Of a DNA stretch of 45,240 bases, positions 5,848 to 36,700 are shown one piece after another. The position numbers and the translations under genes are program-made. The stretch is from a virus, in IMG/VR virus record IMGVR_UViG_3300045988_062454. One strand, 5' to 3'. Under the pieces are notes generated by a model. That model had not been told where the DNA came from. It did not search any database and saw nothing but the letters and a program-made list of their open reading frames with translations. The first letter of the stretch is position 1, and the number at the start of each line of letters is the position of its first letter.

Positions 5848-6083
5848 TGGATATGATGAAACAGCTTGATGAAGCAATCGGGGCAGCTTTTGAAGAATTC
5901 AAGAAGGAATTTGGAGAAGATGTTAAGCTTGAAGAAGGGGACGAATTTGTAACTGTATTTAATAATGCGGTTCTTGTGATTGGTGTTGAAGATTATACCC
6001 TGAAAACAAAGTTTATTGGTGGTAAACCATATAAGGTAGATATGACACTTGCAATTTATGAAGGGGGTTCGGATGATGAATAA
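5847..6083 (+). CDS. hypothetical acidic protein
   Basis: 78-aa ORF whose start overlaps the previous stop (TAATG). Confidence 0.4.
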   Translation: MDMMKQLDEAIGAAFEEFKKEFGEDVKLEEGDEFVTVFNNAVLVIGVEDYTLKTKFIGGKPYKVDMTLAIYEGGSDDE

Positions 6084-6609
6084 TTTTAGTGAAGCAGATA
6101 GAATTGAACAGTTTGAAAAGTTAATGAACCCTTATATTTCAAAGGAATTCAGGAATTGGCTGATTGCCAATGGATTTTTCACAGCCCCGGCTTCTATTCA
6201 TCACCACGGGGCATATACAGGGGCGTTGTTCGATCATAGCTTTGCAGTAACCAAAACGCTTCTTTCCTTCACAGAACGGCTTGGGTTATCGTGGATGAAA
6301 GAGCGCAGCCCCTATATTGTGGGTATGTTCCATGATTTGTGTAAGATTGATAATTACACATATTCGGGGAATGAAGCGTGGGAATATAACAATGCAACCT
6401 TTCTTCCGGGACATGGTGAAAAGTCGGTGATTATGCTGCAACAGCACATGAACCTTACAGATGAAGAAATGCTTTGTATCAGGTGGCACATGGGGGCTTT
6501 TGATGATAAAGAGCATTGGAACAGCTACGGGCGATCCGTGACACATTTTCCGAACGTGCTTTACACTCATACCGCAGATATGGTTGCAGCCCGTATTTTG
6601 GGGGTGTGA
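6073..6609 (+). CDS. HD-domain phosphohydrolase (YhaM-like HD domain)
   Basis: Motifs are SIHHHGAYTGALFDHS, GMFHDLCK, GHGEKS and IRWHMG. ATG 6073/6076 follows RBS aaggggg. The tracked ORF begins at 6049. Confidence 0.7.
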   Translation: MMNNFSEADRIEQFEKLMNPYISKEFRNWLIANGFFTAPASIHHHGAYTGALFDHSFAVTKTLLSFTERLGLSWMKERSPYIVGMFHDLCKIDNYTYSGNEAWEYNNATFLPGHGEKSVIMLQQHMNLTDEEMLCIRWHMGAFDDKEHWNSYGRSVTHFPNVLYTHTADMVAARILGV

Positions 6610-6611
6610 TT

Positions 6612-6749
6612 ATGAGCCGTGAACAGGATGATTTGGATCAGTTGAAATATATTCAAGAATGGACAAAGAAACAGGCGCAAAAAAGAGCAAGGCGAAAAGA
6701 ATTTGTTCAAAAATTCAAAAATAAATTGAAATGGTGGTGTAGAAAATGA
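6612..6749 (+). CDS. small basic protein (hypothetical)
   Basis: ATG 6612 follows ggggtg. 45 aa, Lys/Arg-rich. It overlaps the next start. Confidence 0.3.
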   Translation: MSREQDDLDQLKYIQEWTKKQAQKRARRKEFVQKFKNKLKWWCRK

Positions 6750-7642
6750 AGATATATGATGGAATTATGGGTTTGGTTGTCGCTGATGCGGTTGGTGTTC
6801 CGTTTGAGTTTAAGAAGCGTGATACTTTCAAGGCGGATAAAATGACCGGGTACGGGACTTACAATCAGCCGCCCGGTACTTGGTCGGATGATAGCAGTTT
6901 GACACTTGCCACGGTTGCAAGCATGGGAAGAAAGGGGAAGATTGATCCGGCTGATATAATGAACAATTTCTTCTTATGGCTGGATGATGGGGCATATACC
7001 CCTTATGGGAAGGTGTTTGATGTGGGCGGCAGCACAAGAAAGGCAATTTCAAGATATGCGAACGGCGTTGAACCTTTGAACTGTGGTGGCAAAACCCGCA
7101 TGGATAACGGCAACGGTGCTTTAATGCGTATTCTTCCACTGGCGTTCATCCCCCATACTGCACAGGATATTTTGAAGGTTGGTAAGCTGACACACGCACA
7201 TGAGATTTCACAAACTGCTTGCCGCTTATATGTTCACCTTGCCGGAAAGCTTATTGAAGGAACGCCGATAAAGGAAGCAATCTGTTCTTTGGCTTATCTT
7301 CCACCCGTTACACAGATGAAGGAATTTGAACGGATTGCCTATATTGGTGAACTGAACCGGGATGAAATCAAAAGTTCCGGGTATGTGGTTGACACACTGG
7401 AAGCCGCCCTTTGGTGTTTATGGGCAACCAACACTTACAAGGATTGTGTGCTTACCGCCGTGAATTTGGGTGAAGATACTGACACAGTGGCAGCGGTGGC
7501 AGGCGGGCTTGCCGGGATTGTTTATGGTTGTGGTGGTAAAAACGGCATACCTACCCGCTGGATCAATCAGATTGCCCGCAAAGAATGGATTCAGATGCTT
7601 TGTGATAATTTTGAAAGTAAATTTTCAAAACATTCAACTTGA
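6746..7642 (+). CDS. ADP-ribosylglycohydrolase (ARH/DraG family)
   Basis: Motifs are GLVVADAVGVPFE, GTWSDDSSLTLA, GNGALMRILP and GEDTDTVAAVAGGLAG. Confidence 0.85.
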   Translation: MKIYDGIMGLVVADAVGVPFEFKKRDTFKADKMTGYGTYNQPPGTWSDDSSLTLATVASMGRKGKIDPADIMNNFFLWLDDGAYTPYGKVFDVGGSTRKAISRYANGVEPLNCGGKTRMDNGNGALMRILPLAFIPHTAQDILKVGKLTHAHEISQTACRLYVHLAGKLIEGTPIKEAICSLAYLPPVTQMKEFERIAYIGELNRDEIKSSGYVVDTLEAALWCLWATNTYKDCVLTAVNLGEDTDTVAAVAGGLAGIVYGCGGKNGIPTRWINQIARKEWIQMLCDNFESKFSKHST

Positions 7643-7787
7643 TATTCAAGATACATTCAAGTTGTAGTTGTTAAAACTTGAATGATGAAAAAGCTTGATA
7701 TTATGCTAATTTTCTAATATTCATTCAAGTTATTCAAGTTGTTTTCATGTTCTTTATAAATGGTATTTTTATAGTTTTGTGACTTAC

Positions 7788-7839
7788 TATTTTTTCACAA
7801 AAAATAATATAAAGAGAAACAACAAGTTGAAGTTGAATG
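7788..7839 (+). repeat. 52-bp perfect inverted-repeat copy A (partner at 35828..35879)
   Basis: tattttttcacaaaaaataatataaagagaaacaacaagttgaagttgaatg equals the reverse complement of 35828..35879. Flanking bases differ on both sides. Confidence 0.95.
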
Positions 7840-7928
7840 AAGCTATATGCGCTTTTTCTCAAATACAGATAGAATCAAGGCTTTTTACACATTCAAGATA
7901 AATTCAAGTTAGGAAAGGAAGTTGTACC

Positions 7929-10395: not shown

Positions 10396-11925
10396 GTGTT
10401 TGGCTTTGTCGGAAACATGGCTTTGCGTGTGTCAAATTGGGCTTTGCAAGGTGTTCATGGAAAAATGCACGATAAAGAATTCCTTGAACGGGAAATTGAA
10501 AAGTGGAAAAACAGCCCGCAGCGTATCATGCAGATCAAAGGTCATTTGTACTATGATAATGAACACGACATTTTAACCCGCAAAAGAACCATGATCGGTG
10601 AAGATGGCAAGCTGCAAGTGGTTGATAATCTTCCGAATAATCGGGTGATTGATAATCAGTATGCAAAGCTTGTCAATCAGAAAGCAAATTATCTTTTGGG
10701 ACAACCTTTTGCCATTGATTGTAATAATGAACAGTACGTTGAACTTTTGAAAAAGGTTTTCAACAAGCGATTTATGAAAACAATCAAGAACGCTGGAAAG
10801 GCTATGATGAACAGCGGTATTTGCTGGCTTTATCCGTATTATACGGAAACGGGGGAATTTTCCTTCCGTCTGTTCCCCGGATATGAAATTCTTCCCTTTT
10901 GGAAGGATAACGAACACACAATCCTTGATTATGCGGTGCGCCTGTATTTGGTGGTTGGGTATGAAGGTATATCCCCCGTGGTAATTGAAAAGGTTGAAGT
11001 GTACGATTTAGACGGGGTACATAGGTTTATTTTAGATGGTGGTGTGCTAATCCCTGATGTTGTCAATCAGGAAAACTCTGATTCTTACCACGTTATGACT
11101 ATGAATGAAAACGGGGAAGTTCAGGGCTTTAACTGGACACGGGTTCCGCTTATCCCGCTGAAATACAATGAACAGGAAACCCCGCTGATAAAAAAGGTGA
11201 AATCTTTGCAGGACGGTATCAATATTATGCTGTCTGACTTTGAAAATGGTATGCAAGAGGACACCCGAAACACTATTCTTGTTCTGAAAAACTATGATGG
11301 CACGAATTTAGGGGAATTCCGGCGCAACCTTGCCACTTTTGGGGCGGTGAAGGTTCGCTATGATGGGGAAACCAAAGGCGGGGTTGAAACCCTTGAAATT
11401 ACCGTCAATTCCGAAAACTACAAGGCTATTTTGGAGATATTCAAAAAGGCTATCATTGAAAACGGCATGGGGTATGATGCCAAAGATGATAGGTTGTCCG
11501 GCAATCCTAATCAGATGAACATTCAATCAATGTATTCTGATATTGATTTGGATGCTAACGATATGGAAACCGAACTGCAAGCGGCTTTTGAAGATGTGCT
11601 TTGGTTTGTAAACGCTTATCTTGCCAATTCCGGTTATGGGGATTTTGAAGGGGAAGATGTGAATATCATTTTCAACCGGGATATTCTCATAAACGAAAGT
11701 GAAGCCATTGATAATTGTGCAAAATCCGTTGGTATTCTTTCGGATGAAACCATCATTGGTATGCACCCGTGGGTGGATGATGTGCAGAAAGAAATGGATA
11801 GGCTTGAAGAACAGAAGCAAAAGGAAAAAGAGGAAGCAGAAGCCAATGCTTATAATCCTTTTGCACCGAACCCGCAGCAGCAAGGGGCTTCACAGCAAAA
11901 AGGCGGTGAAGTAGATGAAGAATAG
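10396..11925 (+). CDS. portal protein (SPP1 gp6-like)
   Basis: 509 aa, follows terL. It has a GTG start after aaagggg and an acidic or Gln-rich C-terminus. Confidence 0.8.
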   Translation: MFGFVGNMALRVSNWALQGVHGKMHDKEFLEREIEKWKNSPQRIMQIKGHLYYDNEHDILTRKRTMIGEDGKLQVVDNLPNNRVIDNQYAKLVNQKANYLLGQPFAIDCNNEQYVELLKKVFNKRFMKTIKNAGKAMMNSGICWLYPYYTETGEFSFRLFPGYEILPFWKDNEHTILDYAVRLYLVVGYEGISPVVIEKVEVYDLDGVHRFILDGGVLIPDVVNQENSDSYHVMTMNENGEVQGFNWTRVPLIPLKYNEQETPLIKKVKSLQDGINIMLSDFENGMQEDTRNTILVLKNYDGTNLGEFRRNLATFGAVKVRYDGETKGGVETLEITVNSENYKAILEIFKKAIIENGMGYDAKDDRLSGNPNQMNIQSMYSDIDLDANDMETELQAAFEDVLWFVNAYLANSGYGDFEGEDVNIIFNRDILINESEAIDNCAKSVGILSDETIIGMHPWVDDVQKEMDRLEEQKQKEKEEAEANAYNPFAPNPQQQGASQQKGGEVDEE

Positions 11926-14416
11926 TGATTACTGGAAGCAGCGTTTTGAACAGCTTGAAATTGCACAGAACCAAATAGGCGGTTCAGCCCTTGGGGAAAT
12001 CGTGCAGCAGTACAATGAAGCCCAAAAGCAGATTGAAGGTCAGATTGCCCGGTGGTATCAGCGTTTTGCCGATAACAACGGGATCACGATGGCAGAAGCC
12101 CGCCAATGGCTTTCCGCTTCTGACCTGAAAGAACTGAAATGGGATGTTCAGGAATATATCAAGTACGGTCAGGACAACGCCTTAATGGGTGGATGGATGA
12201 AGGAATTGGAAAATGCTTCGGCAAAGTACCATATTTCTAAGCTTGAAGCCCTGAAAATTCAGACACAGCAAAGCCTTGAAGTTATGTTTTCAAAACAGCT
12301 TGGGACTATGACCGGGGCAATGCAGGATGTTCTTGAAAGTGGCTATTTCCATACAATCTATGAACTTCAAAACGGATTCGGTATTGGGTGGGATATTGCA
12401 GGACTGGATCAGAAGCAGATTGAAAAGGTGCTTAGTAAACCTTGGGCGGCTGACGGTTACAATTTTTCTGATAGGATTTGGAACAATAAGCAAAAGCTGA
12501 TTTCAGAGGTTCACAGCGAACTTACCCAAAATATCATGCTTGGGGCTGATCCGCAGAAAGCCATTGATTCCCTTGCAAAGAAGATGAAAACTTCTAAGAA
12601 CAACGCCGGGCGGCTTGTTATGACGGAAGAAGCTTATTTCAGTTCCGTTGCACAAGGGGAAGCGTTCAATGAACTTGATGTTGAACAGTATGAAATCCTT
12701 GCAACGCTGGATTCCCACACTTCGGAAATATGCCGCAGCCTTGACGGGCAAGTGTTTCCTATGAAGGATTATGAAGCAGGTGTTACCGCCCCGCCATTTC
12801 ATGTTTATTGCCGTTCAACTACGGTTCCGCATTTTGATGAAAACTTCGGTCAGATTGGGGAACGGGCGGCGAGGGATGAAGAAACGGGCAAAACCTACTA
12901 CATTCCCGATGATATGAATTATCAGGACTGGAAGAAAACCTTTGTGGATGGCGGCGATAAGTCCGGCTTTGATGTGGTAGACGATGGTTCAGCCCTTCAC
13001 TACTCACACCACAAAGAGCCTGAACAGCCCAAACCTAAGAAGGAATATCTGACAAAGAAGAAGCTGCAAGCCTATATTGCGGGTGCGGAAGCTGATATTG
13101 AAGATTTGGAAAACCAATTCAATCAGCAGACAAGCGGCTTGATTTCTTGGGAAGATTTCAAGAAGGACTACGGCGGGGATTATTCCGCTATATCCTATGA
13201 CGGCGCAGAGGAAAAAGCCTTGAAAGCGATTGGGGATCAGATTGAAGCCCTGAACGCTCAAAAGGCAGAGTGGCAAGAAAAGCTGAATGAAAAGCTGGTA
13301 AAGGAACAGAAAAAAGCCCTTGCCAAACAGCAGCTTGATTTGGAAGCGCAGAAAGCCGCCTTGCAGCAGAAGCTTGATGATTTTGAGGTCAAAACCTATT
13401 CCGGCATTTGGAAGGATGATAAAACAACCGCTGATTGGGCTTCCCTGAATATTGAAGGCAAGAAGAAATACTATGAAGGGAAGTTCATTACTGAAAGTGA
13501 TCCTGACCTGATGAAGAAATATCAGGATTTGTACAATCAGCTTCAAGAGCTGGACACAGAGGGTAAAGCCTATGCGGATATTCAGAAAGAATTGCAGCAG
13601 GTCAATAAGCAGATCAGCAAAGTTCAATCTGATTTGAAAAAACTTGAAACTGATGGTATAATTGAATCGGTAGACGATGCCTTTTCGCAGGAAAGAAAAG
13701 ACGCTGCAATGTGGGCTAAGTCAACCAAAGAAGCAGATGCCCTTTTGCGTGATACTTGCGGTGAGGTGTGGCGCACTTCCCCGCCCATACAGAAAAATGC
13801 TATCTACGATTACACCCAAAGTTACCACAAATTCAATGAACCTTTGCGGGGCATTGAATACGGCAGCGAAAAGTTCTTAGGCGTTGGCAATGTGGATTTG
13901 GATCAAATCGGCGTGAAGTATGCTGGATGGCAGCCGGGTGCAATGCGGAAGGAAATCAACGCTATGACTGACATAATCGAAAAATCAACCTATCAGGAAG
14001 ATTTTTGGTTGCAGCGTGGTTGTAGATTTAAGGGCATGGATAAGTTCTTCAATGTTCCGATGGATAAATTGCAGCGGGCAACACAAGATGAATTGGAAGC
14101 CTTGCTTTTGGGTACTACACCCACAGAATACGGCTTTTGTTCATGCGGCGTTGCAAAGGGCAAAGGATTCAGCGGTGATATTATCCTGAATATCTACGCC
14201 CCTTCCGGCACTCAAATGATGTATGTTGAACCATTTTCCGCATTTGGTAATGGTTCGGGCAAGTCTTGGGATGGTATTGCAAAGCAATCTTCTTTCGGGC
14301 AGGAATCGGAAATCATCTTGCAGCAAGGAACAACCTTCCGTGTTACAAAGGTTGAGAAAACACCCGGCATGATATACATTGATCTTGAGGTCATAGGGCA
14401 AAACCCGCAGCGATAG
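11915..14416 (+). CDS. MuF/SPP1 gp7-like minor head protein fused to a C-terminal ADP-ribosyltransferase (R-S-E class) domain
   Basis: The MuF motif is LDSHTSEICRSLDGQVF...APPFHVYCRSTTVP. A long coiled coil follows. The C-terminus then has IYDYTQSYHKFNEPLRG, FWLQRG (Arg), GFCSCG (STS-like) and GQESEIILQQGTTF (ExE). Confidence 0.8.
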   Translation: MKNSDYWKQRFEQLEIAQNQIGGSALGEIVQQYNEAQKQIEGQIARWYQRFADNNGITMAEARQWLSASDLKELKWDVQEYIKYGQDNALMGGWMKELENASAKYHISKLEALKIQTQQSLEVMFSKQLGTMTGAMQDVLESGYFHTIYELQNGFGIGWDIAGLDQKQIEKVLSKPWAADGYNFSDRIWNNKQKLISEVHSELTQNIMLGADPQKAIDSLAKKMKTSKNNAGRLVMTEEAYFSSVAQGEAFNELDVEQYEILATLDSHTSEICRSLDGQVFPMKDYEAGVTAPPFHVYCRSTTVPHFDENFGQIGERAARDEETGKTYYIPDDMNYQDWKKTFVDGGDKSGFDVVDDGSALHYSHHKEPEQPKPKKEYLTKKKLQAYIAGAEADIEDLENQFNQQTSGLISWEDFKKDYGGDYSAISYDGAEEKALKAIGDQIEALNAQKAEWQEKLNEKLVKEQKKALAKQQLDLEAQKAALQQKLDDFEVKTYSGIWKDDKTTADWASLNIEGKKKYYEGKFITESDPDLMKKYQDLYNQLQELDTEGKAYADIQKELQQVNKQISKVQSDLKKLETDGIIESVDDAFSQERKDAAMWAKSTKEADALLRDTCGEVWRTSPPIQKNAIYDYTQSYHKFNEPLRGIEYGSEKFLGVGNVDLDQIGVKYAGWQPGAMRKEINAMTDIIEKSTYQEDFWLQRGCRFKGMDKFFNVPMDKLQRATQDELEALLLGTTPTEYGFCSCGVAKGKGFSGDIILNIYAPSGTQMMYVEPFSAFGNGSGKSWDGIAKQSSFGQESEIILQQGTTFRVTKVEKTPGMIYIDLEVIGQNPQR

Positions 14417-14431
14417 AAAGAAGGTGATTGA

Positions 14432-14659
14432 ATGGCTGAAAAGAAATCTTTGGAAGAACGGTATGCGGATGAAGTATTGAGCGACAACACGCAGATTGAA
14501 AAGTACCGTCAATGTAAAAATTGTATATTCAGGGATGGCGGCACAGTCTATTCAAACCACTATCAGAAAGGTTGTTGCCGGATGTACCCTTATCCGCAGT
14601 TCAAGCCTTATGAAGTGATGATGAATCAAATTCGATGTGAATACTACGAAAAGGAATAA
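14432..14659 (+). CDS. small Cys-rich protein (possible partner or immunity for the MuF toxin domain)
   Basis: 75 aa with the pattern CKNC...GCC...C. It sits immediately downstream of the MuF-ART gene. Confidence 0.4.
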   Translation: MAEKKSLEERYADEVLSDNTQIEKYRQCKNCIFRDGGTVYSNHYQKGCCRMYPYPQFKPYEVMMNQIRCEYYEKE

Positions 14660-14696
14660 GCACTTTTGAAAGTTTATTTTCAAGGGTGCTTTTTTC
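14659..14696 (+). terminator. rho-independent terminator
   Basis: agcacttttgaaa / ttttcaagggtgct (with G-U pairs) is followed by tttttt. Confidence 0.6.
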
Positions 14697-14865: not shown

Positions 14866-14888
14866 AGCACCCTTGCGGGTGCTTTTTC
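14866..14888 (+). terminator. rho-independent terminator inside the 14.7-15.0 kb gap
   Basis: agcaccc-ttgc-gggtgct is followed by ttttt. Confidence 0.5.
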
Positions 14889-14981
14889 TTCGCCTTTTTT
14901 GCATTGCAGGCGGTAAAGAACAAGATTCATTCGTGGTTCGTCACCCACGGTAAACAACGGAAATGAAAGGATGGTACAAAC

Positions 14982-15569
14982 ATGAATAAAGAAGATTTGA
15001 TTGCAATGGGTTTGACAGAGGAACAGGCAAAGAAGGTAATGGATTCCCTTGATGGAAACTATGTCACCAAAACCCGATTTAATGAGGTCAACGAGGAAAA
15101 CAAGACTTTGAAAAAGTCCGTTTCTGATAGGGATAAGCAGCTTGAGGATTTGAAAAAGTCCAGCGGCGACAACGAGGAACTGAAAAAGCAGATTGAAACT
15201 TTGCAGCAGGAAAATGCTAATCAGAAAAAGGCGCATGACGCAGAAATGACACAGCTTCGCCTTGACAATGCCATTGATGCAGCTTTAACGGCGGCGGGGG
15301 CTAAAAATATCAAGGCAGTTCGTGCGCTGATCGACACTTCCAAAGTGAAGGTTGGGGAAGATGGTAAGCTGACAGGGTTTGATGATCTTCTTTCGGCAGT
15401 TCAGAAATCGGATTCTTACCTGTTTACTGAAAAACAGCAGAAGCAGAACTTCAAAGGATTTCAGCCGGGAGCTTCCGGCAATGTGAAGCCGGGAACTAAG
15501 GTGGATATGTCTAAAATGACCTATGAGGAATTGGCAAATTACATTGATCAGAACCCCGATGCTGAATAA
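14982..15569 (+). CDS. scaffolding protein (GP20-like)
   Basis: MNKEDLIAMGLTEEQAKKVMDSLDGNYVTKTRFNEV plus a coiled coil. It lies upstream of the capsid gene. Confidence 0.7.
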   Translation: MNKEDLIAMGLTEEQAKKVMDSLDGNYVTKTRFNEVNEENKTLKKSVSDRDKQLEDLKKSSGDNEELKKQIETLQQENANQKKAHDAEMTQLRLDNAIDAALTAAGAKNIKAVRALIDTSKVKVGEDGKLTGFDDLLSAVQKSDSYLFTEKQQKQNFKGFQPGASGNVKPGTKVDMSKMTYEELANYIDQNPDAE

Positions 15570-18460: not shown

Positions 18461-18673
18461 ATGGCGGTAAGGAAAACCACAAAAACCGCTGCAAAGGAAG
18501 CTGAAAATATTGAAAGTGAATTTTCAAAAAATCAGCTTCTTGCGGCAAAGCGTTTCAGAGGTAAGCGGGATGCCCTGAACGCTGTTCTTTCTAAATATCC
18601 CGATGATGAAAAATTCACGGTGAAAACCGTTGAACAAATGATTGAAGATTATATGAAAGGTAAGGTGAACTAA
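18461..18673 (+). CDS. hypothetical protein
   Basis: 70-aa ORF with RBS aaggtgatgg. Confidence 0.35.
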   Translation: MAVRKTTKTAAKEAENIESEFSKNQLLAAKRFRGKRDALNAVLSKYPDDEKFTVKTVEQMIEDYMKGKVN

Positions 18674-18674
18674 G

Positions 18675-19982
18675 ATGGCTTTGGGCGGTGGAACTTTTGT
18701 TACACAGAATAAAACCCTTCCCGGTGCTTATATCAACTTTGTATCGGCAGCAGCCGCAAGCGCAACCCTTTCTGATAGAGGTATCGCAACTATGCCCCTT
18801 GAACTGGATTGGGGCAAGGAAGGGGAAGTCTTTGAAGTTACCAATGGTGATTTTCAGAAGAACAGTATGGAAATCTTCGGATATGAGTACACCAACAATA
18901 AGTTGAAGGGGCTTCGTGACCTGTTTCTTGGGGCAAGAACCCTGTACGCTTACCGCCTGAACGGTGGTGGCACAAAGGCAAGTAATACCTATGCGGAAGC
19001 CCTGTATGGCGGCACCCGTGGTAATGACCTGAAAATCGTGATTCAGAAAAACGCTGATAACGATGAACTTTTCGATGTGACAACCATTCTTGGCACTTCG
19101 GAAGTTGATGTTCAGACGGTTGCCGCAGCTTCTAATCTTGTACCGAACAAGTATGTGAAGTTCAAAACGGAAGCTGAACTTGCAGTCACCGCTTCTACCC
19201 CGCTTACTGGCGGTACAAATAAGACGGTGGACGGCGCAGCTTATCAGGCGTACTTGGATAAGATTGAAGCTTATACCTATAACACGATGGGCGTTGTGGT
19301 AACTGATGATACCACAAAGAACCTGTTTGTTTCCTTCGTGAAGCGGCTTCGTGATGAAATGGGTATCAAGTTCCAGCTTGTTCTTCACAATAAGGCAGCC
19401 GATTACTACGGTGTTATCAATGTGAAAAATTCTGTTACCGATGCCGCTTTTGGTGCAGCCGCACTTGTTTATTGGGTAACTGGTGCGGAAGCCGGGTGTG
19501 AGGTCAATAGAAGCTGTCAGAACAAGGTTTATGACGGTGAATTTGATGTTGGTGTGGACTACACGCAGAATGAACTGATTGCCGCTATCAATGCGGGTGA
19601 ATTCGTTCTTCATAAGGTCGGTACTGATATTCGTGTGCTGTCTGACATTAACAGCATGACTACCACTTCCGACACGCAGGGCGATATTTTCAAGGACAAT
19701 CAGACGATCCGGGTTATCGATCAGATTGCAAATGATATTGCCGTCCTGTTCAAAGATAAGTATTTGGGCGTTGTTCCCAACGATGCAGCGGGGCGCATTT
19801 CTCTTTGGTCGGATATTGTGAAGCACCATCAGCAGCTTAATGATATTCGTGCCATTGAAGATTTTGCCGATTCTGATGTGGTTGTGGAACAGGGCGACAC
19901 TAAGAAATCGGTTGTGGTAACGGACGCTGTAACGGTTGTAAATGCTATGGATAAGCTTTATATGACCGTTACAGTGGCATAA
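18675..19982 (+). CDS. contractile tail sheath protein (XkdK-like)
   Basis: The N-terminus is MALGGGTFVTQNKTLPGAYINFVS. 435 aa. Confidence 0.85.
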   Translation: MALGGGTFVTQNKTLPGAYINFVSAAAASATLSDRGIATMPLELDWGKEGEVFEVTNGDFQKNSMEIFGYEYTNNKLKGLRDLFLGARTLYAYRLNGGGTKASNTYAEALYGGTRGNDLKIVIQKNADNDELFDVTTILGTSEVDVQTVAAASNLVPNKYVKFKTEAELAVTASTPLTGGTNKTVDGAAYQAYLDKIEAYTYNTMGVVVTDDTTKNLFVSFVKRLRDEMGIKFQLVLHNKAADYYGVINVKNSVTDAAFGAAALVYWVTGAEAGCEVNRSCQNKVYDGEFDVGVDYTQNELIAAINAGEFVLHKVGTDIRVLSDINSMTTTSDTQGDIFKDNQTIRVIDQIANDIAVLFKDKYLGVVPNDAAGRISLWSDIVKHHQQLNDIRAIEDFADSDVVVEQGDTKKSVVVTDAVTVVNAMDKLYMTVTVA

Positions 19983-19999
19983 GAAAGGGGTGAAATTCA

Positions 20000-20479
20000 G
20001 TGAACAACATTGTGATGAAAGGCAAAGACACAATCGCCGCTAAGATGGCGGAGTGCTTTATCACTATTGGGGATCGCCGCTATAACTTTATGCAGATGAT
20101 TGATATGGAAGTTCAGGTTGAAAAAACCAAAACCACCGTTCCCCGCCTTGGGGCAATCATGGCAGGTCATAAGTCTTGCGGTATGGAAGGTACTTTTTCC
20201 GGCACAGCCCATTACAATCAGTCTGTAATGCGGCAGCTTCTTCTTGACTACAAGAACAGCGGTGTTGATGCCTACTTTGAAATGCAGATCACCAACGATG
20301 ATCCCGGTTCGGACGCTGGCAGACAGACGATTGTTCTTTATGACTGCAACACGGACGGCGGTATTTTGGCTAAGTTCGATGCAGACGGTGAATATCTGGA
20401 TGAAGAAATTGAAGGTACTTTCGAGGATTTCTCCATGCCGGAATCTTTTGCACAGCTTACGGGCTTCCTTACGAACTAA
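20000..20479 (+). CDS. tail tube protein (XkdM-like)
   Basis: 159 aa, directly after the sheath gene. Confidence 0.75.
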   Translation: MNNIVMKGKDTIAAKMAECFITIGDRRYNFMQMIDMEVQVEKTKTTVPRLGAIMAGHKSCGMEGTFSGTAHYNQSVMRQLLLDYKNSGVDAYFEMQITNDDPGSDAGRQTIVLYDCNTDGGILAKFDADGEYLDEEIEGTFEDFSMPESFAQLTGFLTN

Positions 20480-20484
20480 GGTTA

Positions 20485-20529
20485 AACCCCTTGTGTGGGC
20501 TTTATATAGGCTCATATAAGGGGTTTTTC
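20485..20529 (+). terminator. hairpin plus T-run after the tube gene
   Basis: aaccccttgtgtgggc pairs with gctcatataaggggtt (G-U pairs), followed by ttttt. Confidence 0.5.
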
Positions 20530-20552
20530 TTATCACTCGATAAACAGAAAGG

Positions 20553-20996
20553 ATGAATGAAAAAATGTCTAAATTCGCTAAATTTATGAAAGCAAACAAA
20601 ACCGTGAAAGAGAACGGTTTTTATCCGGCTACTAAGTCCCTTTGTGACGATAACGGCAACCCCCTTGAATGGGAGTTCCGCCATATCACTTCTAAGGAAA
20701 ATGAAGATATTCGTGAATCCTGTACGCTTGATGTGCCTGTTACGGGTAAGCCGAATATGTACCGTCCAAAGCTGAAATCCAACCTGTATATTCAGAAAAT
20801 GATTGTGGCTTCCATCGTTACCCCTGATATGTACAACGCTGAATTGCAGGATTCCTACGGCGTAAAAACCCCGGAAGATCTGCTTATGGCTATGGTGGAT
20901 GATCCGGGTGAGTATAACGATCTTGCCGCATTTGTACAGAAATTTCAGGGCTTTAATGTGTCCTTTGACGATAAGGTGAATGAAGCAAAAAACTAA
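20553..20996 (+). CDS. tail assembly chaperone (XkdN-like), zero-frame product
   Basis: 147 aa between the tube and tape measure genes. Confidence 0.7.
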   Translation: MNEKMSKFAKFMKANKTVKENGFYPATKSLCDDNGNPLEWEFRHITSKENEDIRESCTLDVPVTGKPNMYRPKLKSNLYIQKMIVASIVTPDMYNAELQDSYGVKTPEDLLMAMVDDPGEYNDLAAFVQKFQGFNVSFDDKVNEAKN

Positions 20997-28318: not shown

Positions 28319-30166
28319 ATGGCAGAATTTTCAAAGTTGGTTATCACCAACAAAGGGCAGGCTTTAATTGCAAAGATGATTGCCGGGGAAGGAAACATTG
28401 ACTTCACCAAAATCAGCACTTCAAGCACACAGTATGAAGTTGATGATTTGGAAGCACTCACCGCCTTAACTGGTGTGAAGCAGACTTCCCTTATTTCCAA
28501 AGTTACCCGTACAAACGATGTTGCAATCAAGGTTGAAGCGGCGTTCACCAATACGGATTTAACGGCGGGCTATTATATGCGTACTTTGGGCTTATATGCC
28601 GTTGATCCCGATGAAGGGGAAATCCTGTACGCTGTTACAATCGAAACTTCCGGTAACTGCTATATGCCGCCATATAATGGCGTTACCGTGTCGGGTGCTT
28701 ATGTGCAGCTTGTAACTACGGTTGGTAATGCTGATAGCGTTTCCCTTGAAGTAGATCAGGCGGCAGTTGCTACAATCGGAGATATTCAGGAATTGCAGAA
28801 GCAGATTTCCGATTTGCAGGCGTTTGTGGGCTATACCGATGATGATATTTTCGGTGTGGAAGTGGATTTTGTAAATAAAAAATTCACCCGCCTTGCGGCA
28901 GCCGTAAACCGTACACCGGGGGAAGGTTTTGACGATATTCCTTGCTTTGGCGGGCGTAAACGCTGCAACGTAACCGATGATGGCAGAGTTGCCGCCTACT
29001 ACGGTGAAGCGGGATTTTCCACCACAGGTAAGCTTACACAGGCGATTGACCGCAACCCGGAAGATGTGGAAGAACCTGATACTTCCTTGCAGTTTGCAAG
29101 CGGTACGATTGTTCAAACGATGGTTGAACAGCCTAAGTTTTATTACAAGGTCGTTCCGCTGCTTGTGGAGAATACAGCAAAAGGACAGATCACCCGAAAA
29201 GTACGCTACTATGTTTCCCCCGTTGCAAAGGCTGGATTCAAGCTTCACCCGGCGTTCATTTCCAACGGCAGACAGCTTGAAAAGATTTACCTTGCAGCCT
29301 TTGAAGGTTGCCTTTGGGACGCTTCCGCAGGAACGGGAGGGGCTTACATTTTGGATGATGAACAGGTAGCTTCTTTCACAAGTGCAGTTGGTACAGGTGA
29401 TAAGTTGTCCAGCATTGCTAATGCAAAGCCTATGTCTGGAAAGACACAGAACCTTACAAGGGGAAATGCCCGTATTATTGCCCGGAATCGTGGTACAGGT
29501 TGGGAACAGTCTTATGCCGCAACCGTGGGCGCAACTCAAATTCTGATGCTGATTGAATATGCGTCCTTTGATATGCAGTCTAAAATCGGAAGTGGTGTGA
29601 GTGGTAAAACGGACGATGCAACCAATAATATGGCAGAAAACACCGGGGCAACCGTTAGCCTTGGTAATGCTTCCGGTTCTGTCACTAACGATGGGGGCTT
29701 TAATATTGTATCTTATCGTGGTGAAGAAAACTTTTGGGCTAATATTTGGACTTGGGTTGATGGTATGAATGAACAGAACCCTTCCGATTGGACGAACACG
29801 GAAGATTTCAGCGGTGAATATGGTGATCTGTATGTTGCGGATCACGGGTTTGTAGACGATACAGGAAGTTCCCCGTATGTCAACACCAACCTTCACCCTT
29901 GCTATGGTGAAGGGTACATTTCCGCTTTCTGCTATTCGGAAGATTTTGATTGGATGTTCATTACAGGTGAAGTTTCCGGTAATTCTTCCCTTCCCGTTGG
30001 CGATTACTTTTGGAATCGTTATTCTGGCTGGCGGGTGGTTAGTTTGGGCGGTTTATGGAATTATGGTTCTAGGTGCGGCGGCTTCTATTGGCATCTGACT
30101 TATGCTTCTTCTAATCGCTATCGGATTATCGGCGGGCGGTTGGTGTATGTACCGCAGGCAGCCTAA
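28319..30166 (+). CDS. tail fibre / receptor-binding protein; DGR target with C-terminal variable region
   Basis: 615 aa, follows the baseplate genes. Its last ~48 codons are the VR of the DGR. Confidence 0.8.
   Translation: MAEFSKLVITNKGQALIAKMIAGEGNIDFTKISTSSTQYEVDDLEALTALTGVKQTSLISKVTRTNDVAIKVEAAFTNTDLTAGYYMRTLGLYAVDPDEGEILYAVTIETSGNCYMPPYNGVTVSGAYVQLVTTVGNADSVSLEVDQAAVATIGDIQELQKQISDLQAFVGYTDDDIFGVEVDFVNKKFTRLAAAVNRTPGEGFDDIPCFGGRKRCNVTDDGRVAAYYGEAGFSTTGKLTQAIDRNPEDVEEPDTSLQFASGTIVQTMVEQPKFYYKVVPLLVENTAKGQITRKVRYYVSPVAKAGFKLHPAFISNGRQLEKIYLAAFEGCLWDASAGTGGAYILDDEQVASFTSAVGTGDKLSSIANAKPMSGKTQNLTRGNARIIARNRGTGWEQSYAATVGATQILMLIEYASFDMQSKIGSGVSGKTDDATNNMAENTGATVSLGNASGSVTNDGGFNIVSYRGEENFWANIWTWVDGMNEQNPSDWTNTEDFSGEYGDLYVADHGFVDDTGSSPYVNTNLHPCYGEGYISAFCYSEDFDWMFITGEVSGNSSLPVGDYFWNRYSGWRVVSLGGLWNYGSRCGGFYWHLTYASSNRYRIIGGRLVYVPQAA
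30023..30166 (+). repeat. DGR variable region (VR)
   Basis: It aligns to 30262..30403 at a constant offset of +239. Differences are almost only where the TR has A. Confidence 0.9.
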
Positions 30167-30261
30167 AACCGTTCAATAATTATTGAAAAATTGAAAATAT
30201 GGGGGATTCAGGGAGTTTTGTTGTTTACTCACCGATATAGGGGAGAAAGCAGAAAAAAGAA

Positions 30262-30403
30262 ACCATATAGCAGGTAGCTAAATTAGGCAGTAAATGGAAT
30301 AATGGTTCTAAATGCAGCAGCTTCTATTGGAATCTGAATAATGCTTCTTCTAATCGCAATCGGAATATCAGCAGGCAGTTAGTAAATGCACGATTCAGCC
30401 TAT
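30262..30403 (+). repeat. DGR template repeat (TR), non-coding
   Basis: It is an A-rich copy of the VR and contains an in-frame tag. It has nine AAT codons in the VR frame. The 5' boundary is uncertain by about 10 nt because the flank is A-rich. Confidence 0.9.
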
Positions 30404-30432
30404 GGGGTAGCGTTTTACTACCCCATAGGCTG
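30396..30432 (+). other. 15-bp-stem hairpin at the 3' edge of the TR
   Basis: cagcctatggggtag (30396..30410) pairs with ctaccccataggctg (30418..30432). The loop is cgtttta. Confidence 0.7.
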
Positions 30433-30601
30433 TTTCAAATAAATCTCTGTATTCCTGAATCGCCCCGCCGCTCGGCGGAACAGACAGCCCCCGAAAGGGG
30501 GAAGTTAAAAATAAAATTGGGCTGTATTGGTAGACTTTGAAAGTTTATTTTCAAAGGTTGAAGATTCGGCTTAATGTGCATACAAAGGGAACATTCGACA
30601 A

Positions 30602-31720
30602 ATGAAGCGATATGGAAATCTATATGAACAGATTTGTTCGATGGATAACCTACGCAAAGCCCACCAAAACGCAAAGAAGGGAAAAGGCTGGTATGAGGAA
30701 GTAAAAGAGGTTGAAGCGGATGTTGACGGCTATTTGACACGGCTTCAAGAAATGCTTATCAATCACACCTACCAAACTTCCAAATATGAAAAATTTATCA
30801 AGCGGGAAAACGGAAAGGAACGGGAAATTTTCAAATTGCCTTACTTCCCGGATCGTATTTGTCAATGGGCGATTCTGCAAGTCATTGAACCGTATCTATT
30901 GCGGTATATGACAAAGAACACCTATTCAGCAATCCCTGACCGGGGAATCCATGCGGCGTTGCAAGATGTAAGGGACGCTATGCAAAAGGATGTTCCCGGC
31001 TGTCAGTATTGTTTGAAGCTTGATGTAAGAAAGTTTTACCCTTCTATCAATCACGATATTTTGAAACAGAAATTCAGGAGATTGTTCAAAGATGCTGAAT
31101 TGCTTTGGTTGTTGGATGAAATCATAGATAGCATTTGTACCGCTAAAATTGAAGATATGCGTGATATTTGGTTGCTTGATGAAGATATTGATTCTGAAAC
31201 AGGCATACCAATAGGGAATTACCTTTCCCAATATTGCGGCAACTTCTATCTTTCAGGATTCGATCACTGGATCAAGGAAGAAAAGCGGGTGAAACACTAC
31301 TTCCGGTATATGGATGATATTGTGATATTCGGTGCTGATAAAGCAGAACTTCACCGATTACTAAAAGAAATTGACGCTTATTTCCGGCAGAATTTGAAGC
31401 TGACTATCAAGGGAAATTGGCAAGTGTTTCCTTCTTATGTGCGGGGTGTAGATTTTGTGGGGTATCGAACATTTTTGAATTATACGCTTTTGAGGAAATC
31501 AAGCTGTAAGAGATTCAAGGCAAGGATGGTTGCAATCAGGAAAAAGACGGAAACCGGGCAGATGATGAATTATTCTGAATGGTGTTCCGTGAATTCTTAT
31601 AAGGGGTGGTTAAAGCATTGCGATAGTTACCGCTTACAGCAAAAGTACCTTGCACCGATCCAGCCGGATGCCGATAGGTATTATTTGGAAGTCATAAAAT
31701 CTAAAAGAAAGGCGGCGTAA
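30602..31720 (+). CDS. DGR-type reverse transcriptase
   Basis: Motifs are IPDRGIH, LKLDVRKFYPSINH, GIPIGNYLSQYCGN (the IGxxxSQ DGR hallmark), YFRYMDDIVIFG (YMDD) and VDFVGYR. Confidence 0.95.
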   Translation: MKRYGNLYEQICSMDNLRKAHQNAKKGKGWYEEVKEVEADVDGYLTRLQEMLINHTYQTSKYEKFIKRENGKEREIFKLPYFPDRICQWAILQVIEPYLLRYMTKNTYSAIPDRGIHAALQDVRDAMQKDVPGCQYCLKLDVRKFYPSINHDILKQKFRRLFKDAELLWLLDEIIDSICTAKIEDMRDIWLLDEDIDSETGIPIGNYLSQYCGNFYLSGFDHWIKEEKRVKHYFRYMDDIVIFGADKAELHRLLKEIDAYFRQNLKLTIKGNWQVFPSYVRGVDFVGYRTFLNYTLLRKSSCKRFKARMVAIRKKTETGQMMNYSEWCSVNSYKGWLKHCDSYRLQQKYLAPIQPDADRYYLEVIKSKRKAA

Positions 31721-34104: not shown

Positions 34105-35115
34105 CTAATTCGTTATTAGTTCAATGTTCGTTCGCAGTTCTTCTATATTTTTATGAGTGTACACCCGTTCGCCCGTACCCTTCGACTTATGTCCCATAAG
34201 TCTATCAATACACACCTTATTTGCCCCGGCAGAATCAAGCCTTGAACGGAAGGTGTGGCGGCACTCATGCGGGGTATGTTTCATTTTCAGCTTATCCATG
34301 AGGTCAGCCCAAATTTCACGGTATTTGCTTTCGCTTACTTCCTTTCCTTCATACTCAAAGAGATACCCGGCTTTTGACTGTTCAAAGCGTTTCTGAACAA
34401 TACTTTGAATTTTTGAATGTACGGGAACAAGCCTGTTCTTCCCGGCTTCTGTTTTGACACCGCCCCGCATAGTCCATTCTTTCAGGTCAACATTGGCAGT
34501 CCGTAAAGAAAGCATTTCTGAAATCCGAAACCCCGTATAAATGAAGAACAGGATTGAATCCACCCACGGAAGATTTTGATTTTCCCAAAGGCGGGAAATT
34601 TCTTTATCCGTGAAAACTTCCTTGGTTGTTTCGGGGATTGGTTCAGAGGTTAAAAGATTAGAATTACATTTCATAATTATATCTAACTCCATTGCAAAGC
34701 GGTCAAGATGCCCCCACAGGTTTTTGATTGCCCCTTGTGTGGAATATCCTTTCCCGCAGCCGTCAATGCAATCTTGCATTTGGTATGATTTGATTTGCTT
34801 ATAGTTTGTCTTTGCTAATTTGGAACAATGCTTATATGCCGATTTCAAGGAACTTCGATTTGAAGCACCCAATTTTACAGCCCGTTTTTCAAGCCATAGC
34901 GTATAGAGTTCTTCCAGCGTGATTTTGTCCGTCTTAATGTCCCACGGATCATTGTTGTATTGTGCAAGCAGGATAAGCCCTTCTTCCTTAGTAGCAGTAT
35001 AACCAATAGGCTTCTGCTTCCCGGACTTACCTTCTTTCACAATCCACGGTTTACGCCTGTTCCCTGACAGCTTTGTTACTGTTCCGTACCCATTCGGATT
35101 TTTCAATAACATCAC
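34105..35115 (-). CDS. int: tyrosine site-specific integrase
   Basis: The C-terminal motifs are HTPHECRHTFRSRL, LMGH and ERVYTH (R..HxxR..Y). Confidence 0.9.
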   Translation of the reverse strand: MMLLKNPNGYGTVTKLSGNRRKPWIVKEGKSGKQKPIGYTATKEEGLILLAQYNNDPWDIKTDKITLEELYTLWLEKRAVKLGASNRSSLKSAYKHCSKLAKTNYKQIKSYQMQDCIDGCGKGYSTQGAIKNLWGHLDRFAMELDIIMKCNSNLLTSEPIPETTKEVFTDKEISRLWENQNLPWVDSILFFIYTGFRISEMLSLRTANVDLKEWTMRGGVKTEAGKNRLVPVHSKIQSIVQKRFEQSKAGYLFEYEGKEVSESKYREIWADLMDKLKMKHTPHECRHTFRSRLDSAGANKVCIDRLMGHKSKGTGERVYTHKNIEELRTNIELITN

Positions 35116-35238
35116 CGCCCGTCTTGAGAAATGGCGGTCAAAGTGATATAATAAACCTGACCGCCTAAAATCACTTCATCCTGATTTTCGGTCATTCGTC
35201 CCCGTTGGTGTTGCAGCACTGACGGGGATATTTTTTGT

Positions 35239-35784
35239 TTATTGGTCAAAGTAGTTCAAATTATAGGTTACATAAACGGTATCAAAAGTTTTTGTTTCTT
35301 CATCGTAATTGTAAAACTCAACTTGTGCAACCTTATCTGATACGGGTGAAAATTTATGAGTTGTTCCCGTGTCAACAGTTTTCTTTGCATTTTCCCCCGG
35401 TTCTATTCCAAACATGGCAAATATGTTGTCTGAATCGTTCCCTTCAACTTTCCATTGTGAATTTGAAAACAGGCGCAGCTTCACAACGGAATCTTCATAT
35501 AAAATGAATTCAGCATAGCAATCTTCTAAGTTATAGGAATAAATTTGCATTTGGAAATCCCCCTTAGAAGTTTCATTAGTCCAATCTTCTATATTTTCGG
35601 GTTCTCCAAACTCATTTTTCAATTCTTCCGATGAAATTCTACTAAATTTTGAACAGTCTAAAATCACAGACACAAGTTCATCTTGACTTTGATACTTTTC
35701 AGGATTTTGTGCGATGCGTGAAATACCAAAGCACAACGCCCCAACTAAAATCACCGCTAAAGCTATACCGATCTTTTTCTTCAT
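35239..35784 (-). CDS. secreted/membrane-anchored protein of unknown function (lysogeny-module moron)
   Basis: ATG 35784 follows RBS aaagga. The signal/TM segment is MKKKIGIALAVILVGALCFG. The gene is AT-rich. The tracked ORF extends to 35817. Confidence 0.5.
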   Translation of the reverse strand: MKKKIGIALAVILVGALCFGISRIAQNPEKYQSQDELVSVILDCSKFSRISSEELKNEFGEPENIEDWTNETSKGDFQMQIYSYNLEDCYAEFILYEDSVVKLRLFSNSQWKVEGNDSDNIFAMFGIEPGENAKKTVDTGTTHKFSPVSDKVAQVEFYNYDEETKTFDTVYVTYNLNYFDQ

Positions 35785-35827
35785 AAAACCATTCCTTTCT
35801 TGAAAAATAAACTTCAAAACATCCAGC

Positions 35828-35879: not shown

Positions 35880-36025
35880 TGAAGAACAATAATATTTTTA
35901 CTTCATATCGTAAGAAACTAAAATTAAGTTGAATGACTTGAATGATTCGGTTGCTACAAGGAAATTCAACTTGAATGGAAACTTGAATATAATTGAATTT
36001 TATCTTGGAGTAAAATCTACATATA

Positions 36026-36499: not shown

Positions 36500-36531
36500 G
36501 GCGACACACCCCTTTCTTTGTTTGTAATGCT

Positions 36532-36560
36532 ATTATAATGTATCTTGAAGATAAGTTCAA
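36532..36560 (-). promoter_or_regulatory. sigma-70-type promoter for the repressor (TTGAAC-17-TATAAT on the - strand)
   Basis: The reverse complement of 36555..36560 is ttgaac and of 36532..36537 is tataat. The spacer is 17 nt. Confidence 0.55.
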
Positions 36561-36601
36561 GGGGGTAAAGAAAAAAAGTTCAAAAAACTTGAATTTAAGT
36601 A

Positions 36602-36630: not shown

Positions 36631-36636
36631 GAGGAC

Positions 36637-36657: not shown

Positions 36658-36700
36658 AAAAACAAAGCCGCTGCAACGGTAGGAAGGATGAAGTGATTTT

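Follow-up and report, generated by a model that had tools for sequence, protein, structure and literature searches.

A MuF-family head protein fused to an ADP-ribosyltransferase, with two candidate antidotes, in a temperate phage related to prophages of gut Clostridia

The association of a MuF-ADP-ribosyltransferase (ART) with both a binding and an enzymatic immunity protein is already known experimentally from a Bacteroides phage. In this system, the toxin Bxa is antibacterial and arginine-specific, and is neutralized by the enzyme BAH and by Bsi, which acts by binding (PMC11699363). MuF-fused (p)ppApp synthetase toxins have been described as well (Apk2/Aph1/Tis1, cited in PMC11699363). [quoted passage not shown]

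We analyzed a viral sequence of 45,240 nucleotides (IMG/VR record IMGVR_UViG_3300045988_062454), referred to below as the window. It has an integrase gene at 34105-35115, and the relatives of the phage are prophages of gut Clostridia; a close one resides in the [Clostridium] asparagiforme DSM 15981 chromosome. Our main reading, to which we assign a probability of roughly 0.7, is that this is a temperate phage of gut Clostridia in which one gene of the head module specifies a MuF-family polymorphic toxin, accompanied by two antidotes and a nested transcription unit. The elements involved are the following:

6746..7642, + strand: ADP-ribosyl(arginine) hydrolase, candidate enzymatic immunity protein; the late regulator and terS come next
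11915..14416, + strand: MuF-ART fusion gene, 833 aa, ATG start; between the portal and scaffold genes
12506..12835, + strand: MuF/SPP1 gp7 head-morphogenesis domain, aa 198-307 (PF04233, TIGR01641)
12962..13684, + strand: charged middle region, partly coiled-coil, aa ~350-590 (composition and heptad periodicity)
13634..13662, + strand: sigma-70-like promoter motif inside the MuF-ART gene, TTGAAA-17-TATAAT with TG, at the linker/ART junction
13673..14413, + strand: C3/VIP2-type ADP-ribosyltransferase domain, aa ~587-833 (PF03496)
14432..14659, + strand: 75-aa Cys4 protein, candidate binding-type immunity protein; C28, C31, C49 and C69 in the family alignment
14658..14691, + strand: intrinsic-terminator hairpin directly 3' of the small ORF, 15-bp stem and T-run

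The 833-aa and 75-aa ORFs lie exactly where the original prediction placed them, and the motifs that it quoted are present: CRSLDGQVF (aa 273) and PPFHVYCRST (aa 293) for MuF, and YDYTQSYHKFNEPLRG (aa 631), WLQRG (aa 698), GFCSCG (aa 740) and GQESEIILQQGTTF (aa 795) for the ART. The proposed fusion is borne out by profile HMMs. In the N-terminal part, the protein matches Phage_Mu_F (PF04233, aa 198-303, 56 bits for a cut-off of 29.6) and TIGR01641 phageSPP1_gp7 (79 bits for a cut-off of 39.65), and in the C-terminal part ADPrib_exo_Tox (PF03496, aa 623-815, 63.6 bits for a cut-off of 23.4). Among PHROG profiles, it resembles the phrog_115 minor head protein (E 3e-166) and, over aa 432-832, phrog_16625, 'Bxa ADP-ribosyl transferase' (E 2.7e-33). 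The gene is flanked by the portal gene, directly upstream, and by the scaffold gene, downstream. The MuF/gp7 domain makes up the head-internal, portal-associated module of the protein. Kinship with MuF toxins, as first suggested, agrees with the published polymorphic toxin family (PMC5576092). In the ART-less sister phages, MuF proteins measure 510-685 aa, and in two relatives (L119 and L130) a PBECR2 nuclease takes the place of the ART; the toxin domain differs among relatives that share the same N-domain.

Between the two domains, the original prediction saw a coiled-coil linker of about 250 aa. This middle region is indeed charged and helical-looking, being rich in K, E, Q, D, L and A, but heptad periodicity (z = 3-7) is significant only at aa ~386-460 and ~519-580, so that it is not one continuous coiled coil. 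Its C-terminal part matches the Bxa-family PHROG profile.

Modeling of the C-terminal domain, which had been put forward as a check, yielded an ART fold of high confidence (AF2, pLDDT 93.9, pTM 0.91). In a Foldseek comparison, this model has 142 PDB matches at E <= 1e-3, the top ones being C3, C3stau, Certhrax, VIP2 and CDTa (probability 1.00); it aligns with C3bot 1gzf at E 8e-14 and with 8za7_B at E 2e-13, and TM scores to C3 exoenzymes and 8za7_B are 0.76-0.79. Viral matches of this fold comprise 'minor capsid protein' entries and MuF-ART fusions. The acceptor is most likely arginine residues on proteins, because the domain has an ExE motif and is homologous to the Bxa-annotated PHROG, and because the phage encodes a Tri1-like ADP-ribosylarginine hydrolase. 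The target of this ART had been called unknown; these indications narrow its class.

What such an enzyme is for is a separate matter. It could be injected as a host-takeover or anti-defense enzyme, for which T4 Alt, a capsid-packaged arginine ART, is a model, or be released at lysis and act on animal host cells, its partners only preventing self-harm during production. We hold this to be possible, if doubtful. It fits the same molecular mechanism, and the relatives of the phage are prophages of gut Clostridia, yet T4 Alt is not known to have dedicated antidotes, and the nested promoter of the small ORF, if real, would suit a need to shield lysogens from incoming toxin better than a need to shield producers alone. 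Nothing in the sequence separates such a role from killing. Bxa itself was originally reported as a gut-colonization factor that targets epithelial cells, and promiscuity may explain its antibacterial effect as a by-product (PMC11699363, discussion). Jamet et al. proposed that MuF-ARTs of low toxicity could influence the choice between lysis and lysogeny or counteract host defenses.

By analogy with the Bxa/BAH/Bsi system, the ARH gene is likely to encode a second, enzymatic antidote to the toxin. The original prediction mentioned this gene merely as a control. Its product is a genuine ARH (ADP_ribosyl_GH, PF03747, 230.8 bits), with Lmo0067 (8za7_A, E 2e-70) and Tri1 (6dre, E 5e-44) as best PDB matches. 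Its best NCBIfam match is the Tri1 model NF041672 (201 bits, below the cut-off of 490), where the alignment spans positions 73-354 of the 361 in the profile; in the Tri1 chain, it begins at residue 75. In Tri1, an N-terminal extension plugs the Tre1 active site. The window ARH, unlike Tri1, begins at profile position 73 and so has no such extension; without this plug, removal of ADP-ribose from arginine would be its sole mode of action. The catalytic Glu and the metal-binding motifs are conserved, and E21 aligns with E15 of BAH, mutation of which abolishes BAH activity (PMC11699363). Since the gene stands at the end of the replication module, the ARH is probably made before the late genes.

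The ARH might instead be a general accessory gene of the phage backbone, for example one that reverses a host ADP-ribosylation-based defense, a reading that we find unlikely. It draws on the distance between the two genes, as the ARH gene lies about 4.3-5 kb upstream of the toxin gene in another module, and on divergence, which for the ARH correlates better with the phage (MuF) backbone (r = 0.51) than with the ART (r = 0.31). The two relatives with a PBECR2 nuclease in place of the ART keep the ARH, and conversely no ARH is found within 8-10 kb of the ART in L031, L036 and L038, or near the ART in L154. An enzymatic antidote, however, acts on the product of the toxin and need not co-diverge with it. 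Moreover, the ARH is strongly tied to the ART, being present in 31 of 34 ART-bearing contigs versus 2 of 16 ART-less ones (raw counts, shared ancestry included); in the Bacteroidota clade it directly adjoins the ART, and its closest solved relatives, Lmo0067 and Tri1, were both crystallized with ART toxins.

The original prediction also pointed to the 75-aa ORF as an immunity candidate, a proposal that gains from co-occurrence, divergence and mobility. The ORF starts 16 bp past the MuF-ART stop codon and belongs to an unnamed Cys4 family of about 199 clusters. Of 48 ART-bearing contigs, 41 have a Cys4 ORF at most 300 bp downstream of the ART, with a spacing of -3 to +73 bp where measured; among 21 sister contigs that lack an ART, the number is 0 (again raw contig counts that include shared ancestry). 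Divergence of the Cys4 protein follows that of the ART domain (r = 0.86; partial r = 0.82 when controlling for MuF-N) and is independent of MuF-N (partial r = -0.02). The ART and Cys4 pair also occurs with an unfused 410-aa ART, with split MuF and ART genes and with other MuF backbones. These arrangements suggest a mobile cassette and strengthen the small ORF as an immunity candidate. Two weak family members, on contigs shorter than 700 bp, have no ART fragment upstream of them. The protein has no match in Pfam, PHROG, NCBIfam or PADLOC and does not detectably resemble the 107-aa Bsi-like protein of phage Versailles, matches to which are confined to Bacteroidota-type loci. Its structural model is poor (pLDDT 57). 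Given this model and the lack of likeness to Bsi, our case for binding of the Cys4 protein to the ART comes from genomics only. The four cysteines probably bind zinc.

An internal promoter-like site and a terminator after the small ORF suggest that the latter belongs to a nested transcription unit. The predicted promoter, ~770 nt upstream of the small ORF, is the top-scoring site in a scan of the 5-16 kb region, and one of three TG-extended sites with at least 11/12 matches in the whole window, where 0.085 would be expected. Among 824 in-phase segments compared in 17 non-redundant genes, the one at the motif ranks first in conservation of third-codon positions, while amino-acid conservation there is lower than the gene mean. 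Homology to foreign ART cassettes starts at the boundary on which the motif sits, and a recombination junction could therefore be what conservation of the DNA reflects instead. The terminator hairpin is conserved with compensatory changes, and two relatives (L044 and L040) have unrelated terminator hairpins instead.

It is improbable, in our view, that the Cys4 protein is an obligate helper of the ART, needed for its folding, activation by zinc, packaging or choice of target, or else a small protein of the head module with no relation to the ART. An obligate cofactor would equally predict tight linkage and co-divergence, and the protein has no homology to any characterized immunity protein. 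On the other hand, small ORFs right after polymorphic toxins typically encode immunity proteins, Bsi is a binding inhibitor in the equivalent system, and a promoter-terminator unit of its own suggests expression independent of the toxin. Absence of the ORF from 21 of 21 ART-less sister phages means that it is not a general head-module gene.

As to the enzyme itself, the catalytic residues are R701 (14015-14017), S743 (14141-14143), E797 (14303-14305) and E799 (14309-14311), and all four are invariant in 48 homologues of 35-98% identity. The 'STS-to-CSC' variant of the original prediction is one residue off: in the alignment register given by the C3 and Lmo0066 matches, S743, the middle residue of 'CSC', aligns with the first S of the C3 'STS' and is invariant, so that the motif reads S743-C744-G745. 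The homologous ART of an 869-aa protein of phage Versailles (36% identity over 258 aligned positions) also reads FMSCG, and has a Glu at position 820, as in Bxa; S-C-G is thus common to a Bxa-like Bacteroides phage protein and not peculiar to this window. That the domain is catalytically dead through a degenerate STS motif is highly improbable, as only the literal STS tripeptide is missing, while S743, R701 and E797-x-E799 are present and invariant and S-C-G recurs in the Versailles homologue, which belongs to the family of the enzymatically active Bxa (PMC11699363). Sequence analysis identifies the C-terminal domain as an intact R-S-ExE ADP-ribosyltransferase and a homologue of the Bxa-family ART.

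In our main reading, the ART would most likely ADP-ribosylate protein arginines, and the producing cell would be protected in two ways, by analogy with Bxa/Bsi/BAH. The adjacent Cys4 protein, which moves and diverges along with the ART domain, would bind and block it, and the Tri1/Lmo0067-like ARH at the end of the replication module would strip ADP-ribose from arginine. The nested unit could let lysogens produce the small protein even when the late operon is off. More tentatively, the Cys4 proteins may form a new, probably zinc-dependent family of ART inhibitors, with a constitutive promoter in the toxin gene and a terminator of their own, pre-immunizing lysogens against the capsid-delivered ART of sibling virions. 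If this is true, the phage particle would be a kin-discriminating toxin-delivery vehicle.

The closest known system, Bxa/BAH/Bsi of a Bacteroides stercoris prophage (PMC11699363), shares with this locus a head-module gene of about 830-870 aa in whose product a MuF N-domain and a middle domain precede a C-terminal arginine-type ART, the ARTs being homologous with S-C-G and ExE; an ARH and a small non-enzymatic ORF are present in both. Unlike there, the host phylum is Bacillota, the MuF N-domains have no detectable BLAST similarity, and the 75-aa Cys4 family is unrelated to the Bsi-like protein. The window ARH, of ~300 aa and of the Tri1/Lmo0067-like subfamily, shares 23% identity with the BAH-like protein of 257 aa; its gene is on the toxin strand about 5 kb upstream, whereas the BAH-like ARH adjoins the toxin on the opposite strand. 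MuF polymorphic toxins, among them that of EFV type in Enterococcus faecalis V583 (the EFV toxin; PMC5576092), are likewise found in temperate phages, with MuF followed by a toxin domain and a small ORF directly downstream.

Among solved structures, Lmo0066 of Listeria monocytogenes is the best sequence match to the ART domain (~21% identity) and Lmo0067 to the ARH. They share one crystal entry, deposited as an 'ART-ARH type toxin effector-immunity protein pair' (PDB 8za7), but form a chromosomal effector pair rather than a phage head protein, and the window ARH is without the first ~28 residues of Lmo0067. In Tre1-Tri1 (Serratia type VI secretion, PDB 6dre), an arginine ART toxin is similarly countered by a DraG-like ADP-ribosylarginine hydrolase. 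Apk2/Aph1/Tis1 also combine a MuF toxin with one protein that reverses its action enzymatically and a small one that inhibits by binding, but their chemistry is alarmone synthesis and not ADP-ribosylation. Colicin E structural genes contain constitutive immunity-gene promoters. With a promoter near the 3' end of the toxin gene, the downstream immunity gene would similarly be expressed independently of the toxin here, although this promoter is predicted from sequence and conservation alone and lies ~770 nt upstream of the small ORF. Compared with Bxa/Bsi/BAH, the locus departs in three respects: a different family of small protein, an unlinked ARH and a predicted nested transcription unit.

Both reading frames of the original prediction, and every peptide motif that it quoted from the 833-aa protein, were recovered. 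The toxin gene lies among head genes, with terS and the large terminase gene further upstream:

6746-7642, gene for an ADP-ribosyl(arginine) hydrolase (ARH)
10396-11925, SPP1-type portal gene, neighbour of the toxin gene
11915-14416, plus strand, toxin gene (833 aa)
14432-14659, plus strand, small Cys-rich ORF (75 aa)
14658-14691, terminator hairpin directly 3' of the small ORF
14982-15569, scaffold gene, neighbour of the toxin gene
34105-35115, minus strand, integrase

The proposed fusion of a MuF head protein with a C-terminal ADP-ribosyltransferase (ART) domain is borne out by Pfam, which places Phage_Mu_F at residues 198-303 and ADPrib_exo_Tox at residues 623-815, both above the curated cut-offs. 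NCBIfam adds an SPP1 gp7 domain, and PHROGs assigns the whole protein to 'minor head protein' and residues 432-832 to a family annotated 'Bxa ADP-ribosyl transferase'. An AlphaFold2 model of residues 581-833 (pLDDT 93.9, pTM 0.91) agrees with the profile match: Foldseek aligned it with C3bot, C3stau, C3lim, Certhrax, VIP2 and CDTa at E values of about 1e-13 to 1e-12, and with 8za7_B, whose PDB title is 'ART-ARH type toxin effector-immunity protein pair of Listeria monocytogenes'. The best matches among predicted viral structures were a 410-aa 'VIP2' (45% identity) and an 871-aa 'minor capsid protein' (37%), with several annotated MuF-ART fusions also among them. By sequence and by fold, the 833-aa protein belongs with the MuF toxins and with the R-S-E ARTs. 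Between the two domains, the expected coiled-coil linker is a region rich in charged residues; heptad periodicity appears in two stretches only, rather than in one continuous coil.

Across 48 aligned homologues of 35-98% identity, R701, S743, E797 and E799 do not vary. The STS-to-CSC variant proposed originally had the wrong register: phmmer aligns the serine of 'GFCSCG' with the first serine of the STS/STT motifs in C3 exoenzymes and in Listeria Lmo0066, so that the motif is S-C-G and not C-S-C. A Bxa-like protein of Bacteroides phage Versailles has 'FMSCG' at the same motif. The reading of a dead enzyme that has lost its STS motif was rejected, since the serine aligns in the C3 register and is invariant in the 48 homologues; judging from these residues, the ART domain is intact. 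Concerning the target, which the original prediction had left open, the class of acceptor can be proposed: arginine is the likely acceptor residue. Translation of a free ART isoform from an internal start is unlikely because the only in-frame downstream methionine, Met599, is not conserved (L in 16 sequences, M in 12, V in 8, others elsewhere); Shine-Dalgarno spacing is poor there, and a start at this position would drop conserved helix residues.

The 75-aa ORF downstream, a putative immunity gene, has no match in Pfam, PHROGs, NCBIfam or PADLOC, and tblastn found none among 50,697 phage records. It belongs to a family, hereafter Cys4, of about 199 clusters at 50% identity, nearly all of 60-100 aa, with an invariant C-x2-C and two more near-invariant cysteines; the family has no annotation in any library searched. 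A stand-alone AlphaFold2 model built on a 29-sequence alignment (pLDDT 57) was too poor for a fold search.

We compared 143 viral-contig loci, retrieved with three queries (ART domain, MuF N-domain and ARH), together with 9 loci from genomes. Co-occurrence was counted per contig, with loci grouped by 1200-mers. A Cys4 ORF lies within 300 bp downstream in 41 of the 48 ART-bearing contigs; six others, all Bacteroidota-type loci, have instead a protein resembling Bsi, the small binding antidote of the Bacteroides toxin Bxa, and one has neither. Contigs with an ART-less MuF protein (510-685 aa) carry no Cys4 ORF (0/21) and no Bsi-like ORF (0/21), all 21 having neither. Measured gaps put the start of the Cys4 ORF at -3 to +73 bp relative to the toxin stop codon. 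The ARH is present in 31 of the 34 ART-bearing contigs with enough flank (missing in L031, L036 and L038) and in 2 of 16 such ART-less contigs, with 14 lacking it. For the small ORF the Fisher p value is about 4e-12, and for the ARH about 7e-8; both are uncorrected for shared ancestry.

In the two ART-less contigs that keep the ARH, L119 and L130, a PBECR2 nuclease domain stands in place of the ART domain: the phage backbone is that of the window and the MuF C-terminus has been replaced (11904-13409 in L119, 11529-13355 in L130). Toxin domains have been swapped naturally here, and downstream of the MuF-PBECR2 gene come small RHH-like ORFs and a 218-aa gene.

Over 35 non-identical loci, Cys4 divergence tracks that of the ART domain (r = 0.86; partial r = 0.82 with the MuF N-domain controlled) and not that of the MuF N-domain (partial r = -0.02), and ARH divergence is closer to that of the backbone (r = 0.51) than to that of the ART domain (r = 0.31). 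Cys4 ORFs are also found behind a split MuF and ART, behind a different MuF backbone and, in an unrelated prophage type, behind a 410-aa ART that is not fused; a remote family member follows an ART C-terminal fragment. Two weak members, on contigs of less than 700 bp, have no ART fragment upstream. We regard Cys4 proteins as candidate ART inhibitors. In the unrelated prophage type (L154; features at 6001-7473 and 12780-12968), the unfused ART and Cys4 ORF lie upstream of ParB-methyltransferase and terminase genes; this phage has its MuF gene apart from the ART, and a small Cys-rich gene of another kind (Pfam Cys_rich_CPCC) sits between its portal and MuF genes.

The upstream ARH is likely a second antidote. 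Its closest solved relative is Lmo0067 (8za7 chain A; E 2e-70), whose toxin partner is the chain with the best match to the window's ART domain. The second closest is Tri1, deposited as 6dre, which serves as immunity protein against Tre1, a type VI secretion ART. The top NCBIfam model, 'ADP-ribosylarginine hydrolase Tri1', scores below its equivalog cut-off; the match begins at profile position 73, which means that the N-terminal extension of Tri1 is missing. The catalytic glutamate is kept (E21, aligned with E15 of the BAH-like protein), as are the SDD, GNG..MR and DTDT motifs. The ARH closes the run of genes ahead of an AT-rich gap, a phrog_36 transcriptional regulator and terS; from this we infer that it sits in a module transcribed before the head genes. 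A 45-codon ORF (6613-6750, plus strand) ends in an ATGA overlap with the ARH start codon, a hint that translation of the ARH is coupled to the upstream operon. The motif ATTCAAGWT, present in 13 copies against 1.8 expected, is concentrated in two places and looks like a set of shared operator sites that tie the start of the late operon to the lysogeny switch:

7644-7910, seven copies, in the gap that follows the ARH and precedes the phrog_36 regulator/terS
35968-36944, four copies, around a repressor-like HTH gene in the lysogeny-switch region

The best sigma-70-like site of the 5-16 kb region, TTGAAA-17-TATAAT with a preceding TG (13634-13662), falls within the toxin gene, where the linker meets the ART domain. 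The whole window has only four sites with at least 11 of 12 matches, and three are TG-extended against 0.085 expected. Of 824 in-phase windows, none has third-codon positions as conserved as those in the motif (0.93 against 0.55 gene-wide), and amino-acid conservation there, at 0.55, is below the gene mean of 0.70 (17 non-redundant genes in both cases). At the -10 element, nearly all relatives that keep the isoleucine use ATA, though this is only 19% of Ile codons in these genes. The hairpin 3' of the small ORF is kept with compensatory changes, and unrelated terminator hairpins replace it in L044 and L040. Promoter-like site, gene and terminator together suggest a nested unit from which the small protein could be made without relying on the late operon, resembling the colicin E genes with their internal immunity promoters. 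The conservation of the motif may instead mark a recombination junction, as homology to foreign ART cassettes begins at its position; we give the promoter reading about an even chance.

Other regulatory-looking elements were seen in the window. The other two TG-extended sigma-70 motifs are a perfect one (12/12) at 36602-36630 (plus strand), at the place expected for an early lytic promoter in the lysogeny-switch region, and a near-perfect one at 35124-35152 (plus strand), just past the end of the integrase gene and antisense to ORF 35239-35817. Directly 5' of the scaffold gene, a leader of about 95 nt (window ~14885-14981, and in relatives) exceeds the flanking coding DNA in conservation. One hairpin in it, CGYC..GRCG, shows a compensatory C-G to U-A change, and a second, CGUGG-UUCGUMA-CCACG, is invariant; the leader has no Rfam match and may be a cis-regulatory RNA or a late-promoter element for the scaffold-capsid genes. 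A further terminator-like hairpin (14866-14883) is restricted to the closest relatives.

An integrase, an HTH repressor-like gene and an endolysin show the window to be an essentially complete temperate phage genome. Its close relatives are Clostridia prophages, one of them inside the [Clostridium] asparagiforme DSM 15981 chromosome, with several others in Lachnospiraceae, Oscillospiraceae and Ruminococcus MAGs; no similar isolate phage turned up when the locus was searched by megablast in the 50,697 phage records of INPHARED. A type II hammerhead ribozyme (38103-38167, plus strand; 44.7 bits, above the Rfam gathering score) lies in the early/replication region. Two long minus-strand ORFs (472 and 200 aa; 18615-20599) within the otherwise plus-strand tail module are probably shadow ORFs. 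A complete diversity-generating retroelement (DGR) occupies 28319-31720:

30031-30152, variable repeat, at the 3' end of the tail-fibre gene 28319-30166
30270-30391, template repeat, 79% identical to the variable repeat, with 24 of 26 mismatches at template adenines
30483-30585, RT-17 RNA (Rfam)
30602-31720, reverse transcriptase

Overall, the MuF-ART toxin interpretation is supported, as amended for the S-C-G motif, the linker, the ARH as an antidote and arginine as acceptor. The sequence does not discriminate between roles in competition, host takeover or effects on an animal host. MuF toxins, as defined by Jamet et al. 2017, were found in that study only in temperate phages and prophages, and were proposed to be packaged in the capsid and delivered with the DNA (PMC5576092). 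The antibacterial Bxa is a prophage MuF-ART of Bacteroides stercoris that modifies arginine promiscuously; its modification is reversed without toxin binding by BAH, an ARH, and the small protein Bsi binds the toxin, with predicted occlusion of the active site (Alexei et al. 2024, PMC11699363). MuF-fused Apk2 toxins follow the same dual-antidote logic (PMC11699363).

Phage Versailles has, directly 3' of its toxin and on the opposite strand, a small ORF, an ARH and a second small ORF. This matches the layout described for Bxa and recurs in our most distant loci (L045-L052); the Versailles toxin also shares E at position 820, and its ARH shares E15, with the published Bxa-system proteins. The window and the Bxa system have homologous ART domains, but the MuF backbone is different, the small partner has no BLAST similarity to the Bsi-like protein, and the ARH is of another subfamily and lies about 5 kb from the toxin. 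The novelty is modest, consisting of the Cys4 family, now singled out as candidate inhibitors, and the nested-unit hypothesis, a testable idea on the timing of antidote production; this is no new kind of system. The dual-antidote design known experimentally from Bacteroides phages would extend to gut Clostridia prophages, in a widespread group carried by Lachnospiraceae and Oscillospiraceae. On present sequence comparisons, the window is a Bacillota counterpart of the Bxa system, and by analogy it would work mechanistically like Bxa, Bsi and BAH.
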